Below are positions 5,292-27,102 of a DNA stretch of 64,000 nt, one piece after another. Within the stretch, counting starts at the first letter, position 1. Every line of letters starts with the position of its first letter. Below the pieces are notes generated by a model. That model was not told where the DNA came from. It saw nothing but the letters and a program-made list of their open reading frames with translations, and searched no databases. The stretch is taken from the IMG/VR virus record IMGVR_UViG_3300025131_000004, one strand, 5' to 3'. Origin of the DNA: a virus. Taxonomy: Duplodnaviria > Heunggongvirae > Uroviricota > Caudoviricetes. Position numbers and translations under genes: made by a program.

Positions 5292-5363
5292 TAGCGGAGG
5301 AGGGAATTGAACCCCCGACCTGTTGGGTATGAACCAACCGAGCTGCCACTGCTCCACTCCGCA
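5292..5363 (-). tRNA. tRNA-Met (anticodon CAU)
   Basis: Minus-strand fold: acceptor GCGGAG/CTCCGC, T-arm GGGGG-TTCAATT-CCCTC, anticodon arm GTTGG-TTCATAC-CCAAC. Confidence 0.55.
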
Positions 5364-5454
5364 ACAAAGCAAGACGAGAAAAAGCGAAAAGAGTTTTCAT
5401 ATTCAGGCTGATGCCTGATTTTCTTCAGAAGTATCTCTAATCTGTACTTCGCCT

Positions 5455-5531
5455 AGCAAGATCGTGATGAATCGAACACCTTGCCACAAGGTTTGGAATC
5501 TTGCGTGGATCCAGTCCACATTAGGCTACGA
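5455..5531 (-). tRNA. tRNA-like, possible Trp (anticodon CCA); acceptor pairing unresolved
   Basis: D-arm GTGG-ACTGGAT-CCAC, anticodon arm CAAGA-TTCCAAA-CCTTG and T-loop TTCGATT. The 5' GTAGCCT has no clean 3' partner. Confidence 0.35.
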
Positions 5532-5611
5532 CCTCAGAAAAGCGAGAAAAAGCAACGAAAGGTTTGGTTTCATTTAATGGTTGAAGTATCTTTCGTCTGT
5601 ACTTCGCTTAG

Positions 5612-5690
5612 TGGCCACTAGAGGGATCGAACCTCACTCTGACATGTTCCTCTAACTTATCGGAACACACCTGACACCCATGCCCGGCCG
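5612..5690 (-). tRNA. tRNA-like (T-arm GAGG-TTCGATC-CCTC, encoded ..GGCCA end); fold unresolved
   Basis: T-arm signature plus the palindrome GTGGCCAC at the putative 3' end. Confidence 0.3.
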
Positions 5691-5694
5691 TATA

Positions 5695-6024
5695 TCATCT
5701 CAACACTTTGAAACCCCTAAAGAACTTTCGGTCCTCTCCATACACTGGAATGGATGCTGCTGCAGTCATCTGCATTCCGATGTCAGGTTCAAAGAATGGT
5801 TTCATTGAGATGCCATTGAGTGCGATGTCATTCACCGCTTCTTTCAAGGCATCCTCATCCTTGACACCTAGAAGCACCATAAAACAGGTATCTTCCGGTG
5901 TCGTGCCCATCTTTTCCATGATTCCACCCATCTCTAGGCTTGCATGGCAGGCTTGGACTGCCTGATAAGACTTATCAAGATCCTTTCTAACTAGTACGTA
6001 AACGTAGGGGTTGCCCTAATGCAT
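5695..6024 (-). CDS. PTH2-like peptidyl-tRNA hydrolase with an in-frame TAG at codon 3
   Basis: The track ORF 5695..5931 (MGGIMEKMG...) continues in-frame upstream as NPYVYVLVRKDLDKSYQAVQACHASLE, which carries the PTH2 N-terminal motif. The only upstream initiator is the ATG at 6022-6024 (ATG CAT TAG GGC...). It is preceded by the SD AAGGAGAAAGAA. No alternative start codon lies between the TAG and the conserved strand. Confidence 0.5.
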
Positions 6025-6030
6025 TTCTTT

Positions 6031-6036
6031 CTCCTT
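6031..6036 (-). promoter_or_regulatory. Shine-Dalgarno AAGGAG 7 nt upstream of the ATG at 6024
   Basis: Seen directly on the minus strand. Confidence 0.5.
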
Positions 6037-6109
6037 GGTATTCGCAGAGGGACTCGAACCCTCATCATCGGGTTTAGAATCCGCTGCTCTTCCTTTGAGC
6101 TATGCGAAC
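6036..6109 (-). tRNA. candidate suppressor tRNA (anticodon CUA, amber), CCA encoded
   Basis: Acceptor GTTCGCA/TGCGAAT (7 bp including G.U), D-arm GCTC-AAAGGAA-GAGC, T-arm GAGGG-TTCGAGT-CCCTC, and an encoded discriminator A plus CCA. The anticodon arm is GCGGA-TTCTAAA-CCCGA: 3 central bp with U33, anticodon CUA and A37. Its arm is nearly identical to the tRNA-Cys arm in this window. Confidence 0.45.
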
Positions 6110-6114
6110 AGTTG

Positions 6115-6186
6115 CACAGGTACTAGGATTCGAACCTAGAATAGAAGCTTCAGAGGCTTGCGTGATGCCGTTTTCACTATACCTGT
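6115..6186 (-). tRNA. tRNA-Gln (anticodon CUG)
   Basis: Acceptor ACAGGTA/TACCTGT perfect, D-arm GTGA..TCAC, anticodon arm AAGC-CTCTGAA-GCTT, T-arm CTAGG-TTCGAAT-CCTAG. Confidence 0.55.
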
Positions 6187-6193
6187 ATCTTGA

Positions 6194-6409
6194 TCAGTTC
6201 TTACGTTTGGCTTCGTAAGCAAACTCTATGATACTACCAGCTATCTGAGTTATCAACTCATCTTTTGTCATAATATCACCTTCGATCTTTCCTAGAGATT
6301 CACATACATGTGTAAGAAGAGGCATGGATACCGCCAAATCAACATGAGGATTCCCGTCATCATCTGTCGTGATGCTTATGTCAAATAGTGATACCGGATC
6401 GTATTTCAT
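6194..6409 (-). CDS. hypothetical protein (71 aa)
   Basis: ORF track. Confidence 0.35.
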   Translation of the reverse strand: MKYDPVSLFDISITTDDDGNPHVDLAVSMPLLTHVCESLGKIEGDIMTKDELITQIAGSIIEFAYEAKRKN

Positions 6410-24631: not shown

Positions 24632-24706
24632 TGGTAGGGGTACTCGGATTTGAACCGAGGACTTTCACGGTGTAAACGTGACACTCTCCCGCTGAGTTAT
24701 ACCCCT
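24632..24706 (-). tRNA. tRNA-Val (anticodon UAC), CCA encoded
   Basis: Acceptor AGGGGTA/TACCCCT perfect, anticodon arm TCACG-TTTACAC-CGTGA perfect, T-arm CTCGG-TTCAAAT-CCGAG, then A plus CCA. Confidence 0.6.
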
Positions 24707-24913
24707 ATAATACTATTAAGGTTTTATTACAGAGAACACAGACCTCATTGGTTTCAAAAGAGTCTGTTTCGGTATGAGGACAAGTTTTTTGAAGCTTTTC
24801 AGCTAAGTTTTGCACCTGTATTTGAAGATCATCTACAACTTTGGATGCTTTACAAAGTTGCCGTACCTTCCTATCCAATCGTTCTTTTGTGATTTTATAG
24901 GACATCAGAAGTC

Positions 24914-25174
24914 TTAATCAAGACATTCGCAGTCTTCAAGAGAATAATCACAATAGAGGCACCAGCTGTCATATTCTTCGCAATCACAGCCTATATCATT
25001 TTCGGCTCTGCCTTCACAAAGTTGAATTCCTTCTCCATGTTGCCCTTTGCAATGCTCACACCTGGTGGCGGGGCCACCATTGCAACCACATGCACTCATA
25101 TCCTTATGACAACCAGGACAAGCTCGGTTGAATGGTGTCAAGGCACCATCATTGACTACTACGATAATACTCAT
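24914..25174 (-). CDS. Cys-rich small protein (86 aa)
   Basis: ORF track. Confidence 0.35.
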   Translation of the reverse strand: MSIIVVVNDGALTPFNRACPGCHKDMSACGCNGGPATRCEHCKGQHGEGIQLCEGRAENDIGCDCEEYDSWCLYCDYSLEDCECLD

Positions 25175-25270
25175 TTGTTTCCTCCAATCGTATTTGAACC
25201 TTTTTTAGTTCTTGTGCCGTTTGATTACGGCTTGGAGGAACCAGATGACTAAACACAAATAGTCGGTTCC

Positions 25271-25774
25271 CTAACTGTTCAAGATTTCGATGGCCTCTTC
25301 TACATGTTCATCCAACAAACCTACTCTTTCTTGAGTTTGAACTACATGAGGATGATGGTCTGGATCTTTTACCCATACCTGATCGTCCAGAATGACGTAG
25401 TTCTCCACGTCATTCTCTTTCAACCAAGCTAGAATCTCCTTTCCTCGAGGCATGTACATGGAAGAACCAAATCCACCTCGAACCATAGGAGTGTAGTCGA
25501 CCACCTCTGCTTTCAATCCGATCAAGGACAGGAAGTTCGCACCTTCCTTGAAGACCGGGAAGCTTTCACGCCAGGTCGAAGACCAGATGATCTTAGCCCC
25601 TGTCGCTTCGGTGATGCGATTTACACGAGCGATCATATCGTCATTCGTCATGGATCTCCACCATCCGAACGACTCTCTTGGGTGACCAGAATCGAATGCC
25701 GCTTGCAGGCCCTCAGGACCATTCAGGACACCATCCATGTCTAGGAACACAACCTTCATCGGCTTTCCTTCCAA
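25271..25774 (-). CDS. HAD-family phosphatase (paralog 2)
   Basis: FLDMDGVLN, SSTWR and ILDD motifs; paralogous to 19072..19575. Confidence 0.65.
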   Translation of the reverse strand: MEGKPMKVVFLDMDGVLNGPEGLQAAFDSGHPRESFGWWRSMTNDDMIARVNRITEATGAKIIWSSTWRESFPVFKEGANFLSLIGLKAEVVDYTPMVRGGFGSSMYMPRGKEILAWLKENDVENYVILDDQVWVKDPDHHPHVVQTQERVGLLDEHVEEAIEILNS

Positions 25775-25867
25775 GGGCCTCTACAAGCTGTCCTGGAGGC
25801 CTTCTTGCGTGCATCGCCGTGATTCCCGGAGCCCCATGAGCGTCTACGAGCCATTCGTGCGATGGGA

Positions 25868-26122
25868 TTATTTTTCTTGGGATTCTTCATTGAGTTTCAC
25901 CTCTACAATCAAATCTTCGAATGGGTCTTTAGCTAGAAACTCTTCTACCTCTTGTATCGCTTCGATATCAAAACGATCTACTTCTTCAAAATGCTCTATC
26001 TCAATTGGCAAAGGTGAAGCTGACATCTCTTCTTGATATTGTTCTTCTGCTGTCCAAAAGGCATAACAAAGTATGTAGATACCTATTTGGACAAGAATAA
26101 TAATTGTTTCTGGATCAAACAT
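25868..26122 (-). CDS. hypothetical acidic protein (84 aa)
   Basis: ORF track. Confidence 0.35.
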   Translation of the reverse strand: MFDPETIIILVQIGIYILCYAFWTAEEQYQEEMSASPLPIEIEHFEEVDRFDIEAIQEVEEFLAKDPFEDLIVEVKLNEESQEK

Positions 26123-26136
26123 TTAAGTACCCCAGC

Positions 26137-26219
26137 TGGCACAGGCGGTAGGATTCGAACCTACGATTTCAGCTCCGCTACGGTTCGACAGTTTAGAAAA
26201 CTGTGCCGGCTACGCCTGC
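26137..26219 (-). tRNA. tRNA-like with encoded CCA; hairpin ACAGT-TTTCTAA-ACTGT (anticodon UCU?), abnormal D region
   Basis: T-arm GTAGG-TTCGAAT-CCTAC, acceptor GCAGGCG/CGCCTGT, then G plus CCA. Confidence 0.35.
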
Positions 26220-26254
26220 TTGAGTTTTATAGTATTCGAACATACAATTAAACT

Positions 26255-26728
26255 ATGAAATGTTTAAAATGTAATTCGAAACTAAAAGGTAAATACACAA
26301 AGAAGTTTTGCAATCGTTCTTGTGCTACCTCTTATAACAACTCTCTCTTTCCCAAAAGAAAACCAGAGAATAAATGCGCAACGTGTTCATCGCTAATTAA
26401 TTCTCGAAGAAAATACTGTTCTTTAGAATGTAAACCTCAAGGTCAAGATATGACTCTCAAAGAGGCCATTTATGTTAAACATCATAAATCTTCTGCTTTT
26501 GCTCTCGTTCGTGCTCGAGCTAGAGCTTTATCCAAGAGATGGGAGATGATTTCATGTGAAGAGTGTAACTATTCAACTCATGTTGAAATTGCTCATCTCA
26601 AATCTATTTCAGAATTCTCTGAAGATACTCTTCTTTCGAAAATCAATGCTAGAGAAAATCTTCGTGCATTATGTCCAAATCATCATTGGGAGCTCGATCA
26701 CCCAAAGCAAAAAGAAATAAAGAGCTGA
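26255..26728 (+). CDS. HNH homing endonuclease (paralog 3 of 3)
   Basis: CPNHHWELDH motif and N-terminal CxxC..C..C. Confidence 0.7.
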   Translation: MKCLKCNSKLKGKYTKKFCNRSCATSYNNSLFPKRKPENKCATCSSLINSRRKYCSLECKPQGQDMTLKEAIYVKHHKSSAFALVRARARALSKRWEMISCEECNYSTHVEIAHLKSISEFSEDTLLSKINARENLRALCPNHHWELDHPKQKEIKS

Positions 26729-27033
26729 GACTATACTCTTTAATGACCACACCTTCAACCCCGTACCTGGTTACGTCCCCGCAACCAGCTAAGGTCTTAT
26801 CCACGCCCTCTCGAACGTCTGTAATCAAAACCGCCTATTTTGAGTTCCCTGGCGACGGGAACATAAGTCATGATCTGCTTCGATGCTTCCTGTCACCCCC
26901 AAACCCGCGCAGGTCTAGGGACTCCGTTCATACATCAACCGCATCCACCTTGGGAGCTTCAACGGCCTCTGTTCCCCCGAAGAGGCAGAGGATTTGGCTT
27001 CTTTCGAACCATGACCGACAGGGTCTTTTCATT

Positions 27034-27102
27034 TAAACAACGAGGAATTGAACCTCACCTTTCATTCCGTAGATGAACGCTCTACCATAGAGCTAATTGT
27101 AT
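27034..27102 (-). tRNA. tRNA-Arg (anticodon ACG), second copy
   Basis: D-arm GCTC-TATGGTA-GAGC, anticodon arm TTCAT-CTACGGA-ATGAA perfect, T-loop TTCAATT. Confidence 0.45.

Follow-up and report, generated by a model that had tools for sequence, protein, structure and literature searches.

A single-strand array of about 33 tRNA genes with a divergent GOLLD RNA and candidate Y RNAs in a probable uncultured tailed phage

Results

Composition of the tRNA array

A 64,000-nucleotide stretch of DNA (hereafter the window) from the IMG/VR virus record IMGVR_UViG_3300025131_000004, classified as Caudoviricetes, carries a dense array of tRNA genes between positions 5291 and 27104. Of the 30 tRNAs that ARAGORN predicted in the window, 29 fall within these limits, and the minus strand encodes all 30. 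The Rfam tRNA model yielded 31 matches at its gathering score, again all on the minus strand and every one inside the array, where the union of both programs amounts to 32 tRNAs (Table 1). Three of these were found by Rfam only (13408-13479, Glu-CUC; 17686-17754, a second Lys-UUU; and 26140-26219) and one by ARAGORN only (Ser-UGA, 10545-10626). In its sensitive mode, Rfam added two borderline matches at 12283-12364 (29.2 bits) and 17608-17672 (28.7 bits). No tRNA was called by ARAGORN in 20 shuffled versions of the window. The firm count is 32 to 34 (about 33) tRNAs on one strand. A preliminary description, based on hand folding, had proposed a very large single-strand array of at least 35 tRNA or tRNA-like genes in about 22 kb, to be doubted if programs called fewer than about 15 tRNAs. 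The array itself was recovered by a wide margin (29 ARAGORN calls and 31 Rfam matches), and the number of 35 is reached only if degenerate tRNA-like loci are included.

All 27 tRNAs that had been folded by hand were reproduced by the programs, including tRNA-His with its encoded G-1. This also applies to both proposed copies of tRNA-Arg(ACG), although the one at 27032-27104 sits inside a GOLLD RNA (see below). Hand folding had missed the tRNA with anticodon CUA, Val-GAC, Thr-GGU, the short "Leu" tRNAs CAA and GAG, and the second Lys-UUU. The complete set comprises 28 sense anticodons for 19 amino acids and one amber-suppressor anticodon (CUA), which confirms a near-complete set on one strand, interleaved with short open reading frames (ORFs). 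A tRNA for Trp was found neither in this set nor among the degenerate tRNA-like loci. About ten further loci, previously listed as tRNA-like with unresolved folds, are not simply tRNAs and now divide into five Y-RNA-like elements and approximately six degenerate remnants bearing a T arm. CCA is encoded in just 6 of 34 tRNA or tRNA-like genes. We also observed that positions 74-76 read C-U-A, not C-C-A, in 17 of 35 tRNA or tRNA-like genes; these trailers may serve as a processing signal.

Table 1. Features of the window, ordered by position. ATG positions refer to ORFs that begin at or next to the 3' end of the respective tRNA.
Feature	Position	Strand	Evidence
Ro60/TROVE protein, N-terminal part (575 aa in full; gene runs off the left window end)	1-829	-	Pfam TROVE
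tRNA(CAU), unusual D arm, outside main array; ORF ATG at 1226	1228-1301	-	ARAGORN only
BCS1-like AAA ATPase	2233-3519	-	Best matches in jumbo phages
ATP-dependent DNA ligase	3535-4632	-	Pfam, PHROG
tRNA-Met(CAU), 1-72 mismatch, initiator-like	5291-5363	-	ARAGORN; Rfam 59.7 bits
Y-RNA-like element B, GGCGAAG motif	5368-5456	-	Paralogue repeats, helix covariation
Y-RNA-like element A, short central domain	5536-5611	-	Paralogue repeats, helix covariation
tRNA with anticodon CUA (amber suppressor; ARAGORN label "Pyl"), CCA encoded	6036-6109	-	ARAGORN; Rfam 61.2 bits
tRNA-Gln(CUG)	6114-6186	-	ARAGORN; Rfam 58.5 bits
tRNA-Val(GAC); ORF ATG at 6409	6411-6485	-	ARAGORN; Rfam 56.8 bits
75-nt tRNA, Leu anticodon CAA, without long variable arm; ORF ATG at 7186	7188-7262	-	ARAGORN; Rfam 56.2 bits
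Peptide deformylase	7326-7811	-	Pfam E 1.9e-42
tRNA-Thr(GGU)	8102-8174	-	ARAGORN; Rfam 59.5 bits
tRNA-Glu(UUC); ORF ATG at 8380	8382-8454	-	ARAGORN; Rfam 57.3 bits
tRNA-Cys(GCA), CCA encoded; 5' end abutted by upstream ORF stop	10213-10288	-	ARAGORN; Rfam 31.8 bits
tRNA-Ser(UGA), long variable arm; ORF ATG at 10543	10545-10626	-	ARAGORN only; Rfam tRNA-Sec model 27.8 bits
Borderline tRNA-like	12283-12364	-	Rfam sensitive mode 29.2 bits; ARAGORN at very relaxed threshold only
tRNA-Gly(UCC), CCA encoded	12817-12891	-	ARAGORN; Rfam 64.7 bits
HNH endonuclease, between tRNA-Gly and tRNA-Glu(CUC)	12943-13332	+	Pfam HNH_2
tRNA-Glu(CUC)	13407-13479	-	Rfam 49.9 bits; ARAGORN at relaxed threshold
tRNA-Lys(UUU)	14507-14582	-	ARAGORN; Rfam 46.2 bits
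tRNA-His(GUG), G-1 encoded	16047-16119	-	ARAGORN; Rfam 59.5 bits
tRNA-Asn(GUU)	16131-16203	-	ARAGORN; Rfam 60 bits
tRNA-Asp(GUC); ORF ATG at 16885 (Cpn10-like protein)	16886-16957	-	ARAGORN; Rfam 61.2 bits
Y-RNA-like element C	16959-17097	-	Rfam YrlA 30.7 bits, local E 5.6e-5; repeat families D8, D11; helix covariation
tRNA-Tyr(GUA)	17097-17177	-	ARAGORN; Rfam 47.5 bits
tRNA-Lys(CUU)	17271-17346	-	ARAGORN; Rfam 39.8 bits
tRNA-Ile(GAU)	17467-17540	-	ARAGORN; Rfam 52.3 bits
Y-RNA-like element D; holds the 28.7-bit tRNA match 17608-17672	17545-17684	-	Paralogue repeats, helix covariation
Second tRNA-Lys(UUU), atypical T loop	17685-17754	-	Rfam 42.7 bits, UUU read from alignment; ARAGORN at relaxed threshold
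Y-RNA-like element E	17755-17865	-	Paralogue repeats, helix covariation
tRNA-Pro(UGG)	18135-18209	-	ARAGORN; Rfam 65.8 bits
tRNA-Ala(UGC)	18488-18562	-	ARAGORN; Rfam 61.1 bits
HAD_SAK_2 protein (HAD domain of RNA-repair proteins)	19072-19575	-	Pfam E 1.7e-25
tRNA-Arg(ACG); ORF ATG at 19575 (HAD_SAK_2 protein)	19579-19651	-	ARAGORN; Rfam 55.1 bits
tRNA-Phe(GAA)	19658-19732	-	ARAGORN; Rfam 56.5 bits
tRNA-Leu(UAG), long variable arm; ORF ATG at 20795	20797-20880	-	ARAGORN; Rfam 51.8 bits
tRNA-Leu(UAA), encoded CCA overlaps an ATG (ORF start at 21278)	21278-21363	-	ARAGORN; Rfam 55.6 bits
Short "Leu"(GAG) tRNA, in 3-tRNA cluster 22385-22617; ORF ATG at 22383	22385-22460	-	ARAGORN; Rfam 36.5 bits
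tRNA-Gln(UUG), in cluster 22385-22617	22465-22536	-	ARAGORN; Rfam 48.4 bits
tRNA-Thr(CGU), in cluster 22385-22617	22545-22617	-	ARAGORN; Rfam 29.1 bits
tRNA-Thr(UGU)	23177-23250	-	ARAGORN; Rfam 49.4 bits
DHH-family phosphoesterase	23618-24619	-	Pfam
tRNA-Val(UAC), CCA encoded	24632-24706	-	ARAGORN; Rfam 68.1 bits
Second HAD_SAK_2 protein	25271-25774	-	Pfam E 3.2e-29
Aberrant tRNA-like, CCA encoded	26140-26219	-	Rfam 38.1 bits; not an ARAGORN default-threshold call
GOLLD RNA, full Rfam model (RF02032)	26722-27169	-	133.9 bits, E 1e-36, model positions 1-416 of 416
tRNA-like insert "Arg-ACG" in GOLLD linker	27032-27104	-	tRNA model 44.9 bits
ORF-free, GC-rich, strongly folding stretch, 407 nt	27170-27576	-	z-score -3.2; 0/100 shuffles fold as well
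ORF of >1,340 codons, staphylococcal-nuclease domain at residues 543-662, off the right end, about 1.8 kb past the strand switch	59970-64000	+

Several members of the set deviate from canonical tRNAs. Bacterial initiator tRNAs combine a 1-72 mismatch with three consecutive G-C pairs at the base of the anticodon stem. The tRNA-Met at 5291-5363 has the mismatch, both in the window (U1xU72) and in the related contig L013 (C1xU72), but only two G-C pairs at the stem base; changes in the anticodon stem between the two copies are compensatory. Compensatory changes are likewise found in the tRNA(CAU) at 1228-1301, which is kept at the same position in L013. Bacterial Leu tRNAs have a long variable arm, and two tRNAs of 75-76 nt with Leu anticodons have a short one (7188-7262, CAA; 22385-22460, GAG). 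The same type occurs in L013 and in the phage-like contig L055, the CAA type carries a tRNA-Leu annotation in Rhodococcus, Gordonia, and Vibrio phages, and the pair formed by the Leu-CAA tRNA and its abutting ORF is conserved in L013. In the tRNA-like gene at 26140-26219, the acceptor and T arms are intact and a normal D arm is absent, with a hairpin presenting UCU in a 7-nt loop. A further tRNA-like sequence (17866-17945, minus strand) has normal acceptor, D, and T arms and an enlarged anticodon region with an internal hairpin.

Structured RNAs next to the tRNA genes

According to repeat analysis, five elements (A to E) located between tRNA or tRNA-like genes have two modules in common: GUACAGA-NNNN-AG-(A/U)UACUUC, which is conserved at the 5' side, and a 3' module rich in C and U. 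Each starts directly after a tRNA or tRNA-like gene and stops 4-12 nt before the next one. In the helix formed by the two modules, 82.7% of positions are paired, compared to 70.2% in shuffles and 35-59% when the strands are slid, and six of nine pairs show compensatory change; four of the nine rows in this test were picked by eye. Folded alone, element C was no better than shuffles (z -0.16), and the structure is therefore supported by paralogue comparison and not by folding energy. The 5' strand of element A, GACGAAAG, fits GNCGAAN0-1G, the published motif of the Rsr site in YrlA RNAs (PMC4201824). Element B contains GGCGAAG, and element C a near match (GACGAG). The central domains differ: element C aligns to the YrlA model RF02553 as T arm, loop-closed acceptor stem, and D arm, element D comprises a T arm, a closed hairpin, and a D-like arm, and elements A and B have a very short central domain with no tRNA-like part.

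The window also encodes the N-terminal part of a Ro60 (TROVE) protein on the same strand. The full gene is present on contigs L001-L006, and homologues are named 60 kDa SS-A/Ro by JGI. We consider elements A to E as five candidate Y RNAs that may partner with this Ro60. With YrlA RNAs they share the order of T arm, loop-closed acceptor stem, and D arm, a terminal helix with GNCGAAN0-1G, and a Ro60 gene on the same strand. They differ in number, with five paralogues compared to one or two in known systems, in being bracketed by tRNA genes, in the absence of a tRNA-like part from two of them, and in similarity, as element C reaches 30.7 bits and the YrlA gathering score is 69. Their distance from the TROVE start at 829 is 4.5 to 17 kb, whereas the published Y RNA survey reported candidates only within 4 kb of a Ro60 gene. 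The same architecture was found in L055 and L056, two other Ro60-bearing phage-like contigs, and is not present at the L013 locus, which itself lacks Ro60. An exact-pattern scan of IMG/VR for the 5' module gave 34 single hits, which is about chance for 15-16 fixed bases, and none in multiple copies; this lead was dropped.

At 26722-27169, sensitive-mode Rfam searches revealed a GOLLD RNA. Its score of 133.9 bits is below the gathering score of 150, so the default scan missed it, as routine annotation would. Judged by this match, whose E-value excludes chance, it is a divergent member of the family. The match spans the 5' hairpin, the linker, and the conserved 3' domain, with a tRNA-like sequence in the linker and tRNA genes on its flanks, including downstream ones. 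It is known that GOLLD RNAs occur near tRNA islands and hold tRNAs in their linker (PMC12286853; PMC6582537), and apart from the sub-threshold score this copy, identified by sequence match, has the same full-length architecture. The strongly folding stretch just upstream of the match (27170-27576) is possibly the variable 5' domain of the same RNA.

Relatives and genomic setting

The window sequence recurs at ≥ 99.93% identity in at least six metagenome assemblies. The longest contig (194,898 bp) encodes ligase and TROVE proteins identical to those of the window sequence, and two overlapping contigs, at window coordinates -37,631 to 82,763 and 21,714 to 160,435, jointly cover about 198 kb by coordinate arithmetic. 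This is close to the jumbo-phage threshold of 200 kb and agrees, together with phage-like genes, with the jumbo- or mega-phage character proposed in the preliminary description, while phage status itself is deduced, as no virion gene was seen in the 64 kb. The proposed comparison of the tRNA cluster with large-phage genomes returned no megablast match for either half of the window among 50,697 deposited phages; the same general layout was found in loci L017-L019. A search of 185,579 bacterial and archaeal reference genomes with the ligase revealed no close relative and no prophage copy, and a single-protein search of IMG/VR with the AAA ATPase gave no relatives. The best matches of this ATPase, at about 30% identity, are in jumbo phages of Tunturiibacter, Caulobacter, and Brevundimonas.

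The relative L013 is a contig of 198.8 kb with a ligase 54% identical to that of the window. It shares the order Glu-UUC, Thr-GGU, Leu-CAA, Val-GAC, Gln-CUG, CUA tRNA, Met, ligase, Met-like tRNA, ClpP, and CCA-adding enzyme. Ro60 is also encoded within dense tRNA arrays on two more phage-like contigs, which measure 183 and 206 kb. From gene content, recurrence, and relatives, the source is very probably an uncultured large virus of bacteria.

According to our own codon-statistics caller, the window holds approximately 90 genes, of which 88 are minus-strand genes. The two plus-strand genes called in the array are the HNH endonuclease (12943-13332) and a low-scoring prediction at 26255-26728. 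Homing endonucleases are common in phage tRNA regions. Besides the proteins listed in Table 1, a trypsin-like protease, an NAD synthase, a metallophosphoesterase, an SPFH protein, and a Cpn10-like (GroES-like) protein are encoded in or near the array, and PHROG matches were obtained for the ligase, the NAD synthetase, and the metallophosphoesterase. Directly left of the window, the same contigs encode the rest of Ro60, followed by ClpP and a CCA-adding enzyme. The coding strand switches to plus near 58.2-58.4 kb. No tmRNA was found in the window; tmRNA genes are present in other large phage-like contigs with a related ligase or Ro60 (L056, 13742-14163; L054, 13902-14289; L015, 12398-12774).

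The GC content changes from about 45% (1-34,000) to about 57% (34,000-64,000), with a step at about 34,100-35,100, and GC at third codon positions is 0.43 in the low-GC and 0.75 in the high-GC part. As contigs from different samples cross the step at ≥ 99.93% identity to the window, it is not an assembly chimera. The low-GC part extends at least 6.4 kb past the left window end, resulting in a module of at least 40 kb, and the equivalent tRNA region in L013 has 55% GC, which suggests that the module was exchanged or has drifted. Almost no family matches were obtained for the high-GC half (Pfam, PHROGs, and tblastn).

Discussion

We assign this array of tRNA genes, with a probability of about 0.72, to a tailed phage that is uncultured, probably lytic, and about 195-200 kb in genome size. 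Since the tRNAs are on the same strand as nearly all neighboring genes, they and the small ORFs would be transcribed together in long precursors, from which host RNase P and an RNase Z-type 3' endonuclease would excise the tRNAs. With so few genes encoding CCA, most tRNAs would have to be finished by a CCA-adding enzyme, which fits the presence of the phage's own enzyme just left of the window. The resulting pool, with its U34-rich, minimal anticodon repertoire for 19 amino acids, would sustain phage translation should the host's own tRNAs run short, be degraded, or be cut by anticodon nucleases. By simple wobble rules, the set covers 0.79 of the codons in the low-GC genes of the window and 0.77 of those in the high-GC genes. 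Such equal service to both codon-usage regimes points to a general replacement pool rather than to a rare-codon patch, and the combination of U34 with C34 or G34 members for many amino acids also fits a replacement pool better. The preliminary description had suggested strong codon-usage or translation autonomy; the set resembles such a pool more than a codon-bias patch. The array would be part of a low-GC module for RNA and protein maintenance, comprising Ro60 and its five candidate Y-like partners, GOLLD, the HAD_SAK_2 and DHH proteins, and the metallophosphoesterase, as well as the ligase, peptide deformylase, the GroES-like protein, ClpP, the BCS1-like ATPase, and NAD synthase. In jumbo phages, tRNA arrays accompanied by RNA-repair, CCA-adding, TROVE, and NAD+ genes have been read as a counter to host attacks on translation (PMC7824862).

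Several points weigh against this interpretation. Expression, processing, and charging of the tRNAs are predicted from the genes. Some members have an aberrant form and might escape aminoacylation, namely 26140-26219, 12283-12364, 17685-17754, and the short "Leu" tRNAs. Within the array, 39 promoter-like sites were detected compared to 32 expected, and 23 terminator-like sites compared to 14 expected; neither is clearly above chance, and co-transcription is deduced from strand and packing. The codon coverage compares the tRNA set with phage genes only. Finally, searches by Pfam, PHROGs, and tblastn revealed no capsid, portal, terminase, or tail gene in the 64 kb and about 6 kb of left flank.

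The layout of the array raises the question of whether the tRNAs are chiefly RNA-processing signals that define the ends of small mRNAs and Y-like RNAs, with decoding being secondary. In 10 of 30 tRNAs, an ATG located -1 to +3 nt from the 3' end opens an ORF of 55-167 aa on the minus strand (positions in Table 1), typically at a junction N73-C-U-AUG. The spacing between a tRNA and the ORF that follows has a bimodal distribution (-1 to 3 or 12 to 41), and the frequency of abutted starts corresponds to a binomial P of 1.7e-7. Abutted starts were absent from three cultured-phage arrays (0/63) and present in environmental relatives (3/21, 2/23, and 3/18). At the other side, upstream ORFs stop -10 to +9 nt from the 5' ends of 13 tRNAs, and three ORFs have tRNAs on both sides (10289-10543, 8165-8380, and 6194-6409). 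In two abutted ORFs, Pfam domains begin at residues 3 and 24, and one abutted start has a conserved counterpart in L013, with a protein identity of 48% from residue 2-3 onward. The five Y-like elements, fitting between tRNA or tRNA-like genes, are in line with such a role as well. However, most tRNAs are normal and complete with coherent anticodons, which mere signals would not need. In four of the ten abutted ORFs, a Shine-Dalgarno-like motif lies inside the tRNA 3' strand, and these four might be translatable from unprocessed RNA; the other six have no such motif. We regard processing as the chief function of the tRNAs as a tentative alternative, with the odds against it. A double role is held with the same reserve: going by the arrangement of the genes, excision by RNase P and an RNase Z-type enzyme might define small mRNAs with leaders of 0-2 nt and the five Y RNAs. 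Mitochondrial tRNA punctuation offers a parallel: ORFs in the array begin 0-3 nt after a tRNA and end within a few nt of the next, and by this likeness tRNA excision would release nearly leaderless mRNAs. The parallel concerns the layout only; here, it applies to a phage and to about a third of the tRNAs. No report of phage tRNA punctuation was found in the searched literature.

A second alternative to a replacement pool is that the array solely compensates for codon usage, especially, in a host richer in GC, for those codons of the low-GC module that end in A or U. The four-codon boxes of Ala, Gly, Pro, and Ser are served by U34 anticodons only (UGC, UCC, UGG, and UGA), the set includes Leu-UAA, Lys-UUU, Gln-UUG, Glu-UUC, Thr-UGU, and Val-UAC, and A-ending codons are 2-7 times more common in the low-GC genes (GAA, 0.55 vs. 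0.17; CCA, 0.35 vs. 0.05). However, the set is near-complete and includes the C34 or G34 members Glu-CUC, Lys-CUU, Gln-CUG, Thr-CGU, Thr-GGU, and Val-GAC, and AGA, the top Arg codon of the low-GC genes (41%), lacks a clean tRNA. Given the equal coverage of both gene sets, a tuning of the tRNA set to the low-GC genes was rejected, and compensation as the only function appears unlikely.

The tRNA with anticodon CUA could indicate that the phage reads TAG as an amino acid (code 15) and that the array serves an alternative code. This tRNA is well formed (61.2 bits), and further CUA tRNAs are found in L013 (7215-7286, same relative position) and L056 (7263-7336), which matches the suppressor-type tRNA that recoded jumbo phages usually carry (PMC13037316). 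The three CUA tRNAs are dissimilar in sequence, and comparison of the CUA tRNA with annotated phage tRNAs by BLAST gave mixed Arg, Trp, and Asn neighbors (76-83%) with no consistent amino-acid identity. Against recoding, TAG terminates 24 of the 90 predicted genes. The ligase gene is one of these, and its product matches the Pfam OB domain up to its last residues. ORFs of 942 and > 1,343 codons contain no in-frame TAG, ORF statistics with TAG as a sense codon do not set it apart from the TGA and TAA controls, and no release-factor gene was seen within the window. No in-frame TAG was found inside conserved genes of the 64-kb window. Read-through extensions of more than 100 codons do follow TAG more often (6/24) than TAA and TGA (3/66). 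At the TAG gene junctions at 3535, 32526, 45916, and 28663, an in-frame ORF follows after 3-5 codons and thereby mimics read-through, and at 32526 and 45916 the TAG overlaps the Shine-Dalgarno site of the next gene (TAGGAG...). Since the long extensions represent gene junctions and the downstream ORFs each have their own start, recoding was rejected and is given little credence here. Within the window, TAG is an ordinary stop codon, in contrast to TAG-recoded phages, with which the window shares a well-formed CUA tRNA.

Least probable of all is that the locus is not viral but a tRNA-array island of a bacterial chromosome or large plasmid, as in Mycobacterium, where a large tRNA cluster, a GOLLD with internal pseudo-tRNA, and an HNH endonuclease were horizontally transferred (PMC6582537): the same combination and the lack of virion genes in the window are opposed by contigs of about 195 kb with no housekeeping gene in the roughly 70 kb read, a relative with a contig nearly as long, no relative in the reference genomes, a near-unchanged sequence in several metagenomes, and jumbo phages as the best matches of the AAA ATPase.

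Large phage tRNA arrays are already well documented, and the window adds a member, not a concept. With 67-70 tRNAs reached in huge phages (PMC7162821; PMC13037316), the number found here is ordinary for the genome size. Like the arrays of phiCbK-like Caulobacter phages, KVP40-like Vibrio phages, cluster C mycobacteriophages, and huge phages from metagenomes, it comprises tens of tRNAs on one strand together with small ORFs and homing endonucleases, and RNA-repair, CCA-adding, TROVE, and NAD+ genes are shared as well (PMC7824862; PMC7162821). It differs from these in lacking a close sequence relative among the deposited phages, in its tighter packing with ORF starts abutting tRNAs, and in its location in a distinct low-GC module, whereas the equivalent region of L013 has a higher GC content.

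What the window adds is a sub-threshold GOLLD, five Y-like RNAs, abutted ORF starts, a suppressor tRNA without recoding, and a composition step. Its value lies in bringing together several RNA systems whose function is unknown or debated in one compact, transcription-oriented block, and the sharp step in GC content and codon usage within one genome bears on the movement of modules between phages. If the tRNA genes indeed double as punctuation, a single processing system would mature tRNAs, free leaderless messages, and make RNA-surveillance RNAs from one compact transcript, and this would be a bacterial-virus counterpart to mitochondrial tRNA punctuation. If the abutted starts reflect real processing, they would represent a new route to leaderless mRNAs in phages and offer one more explanation of why tRNA genes are retained by phages.

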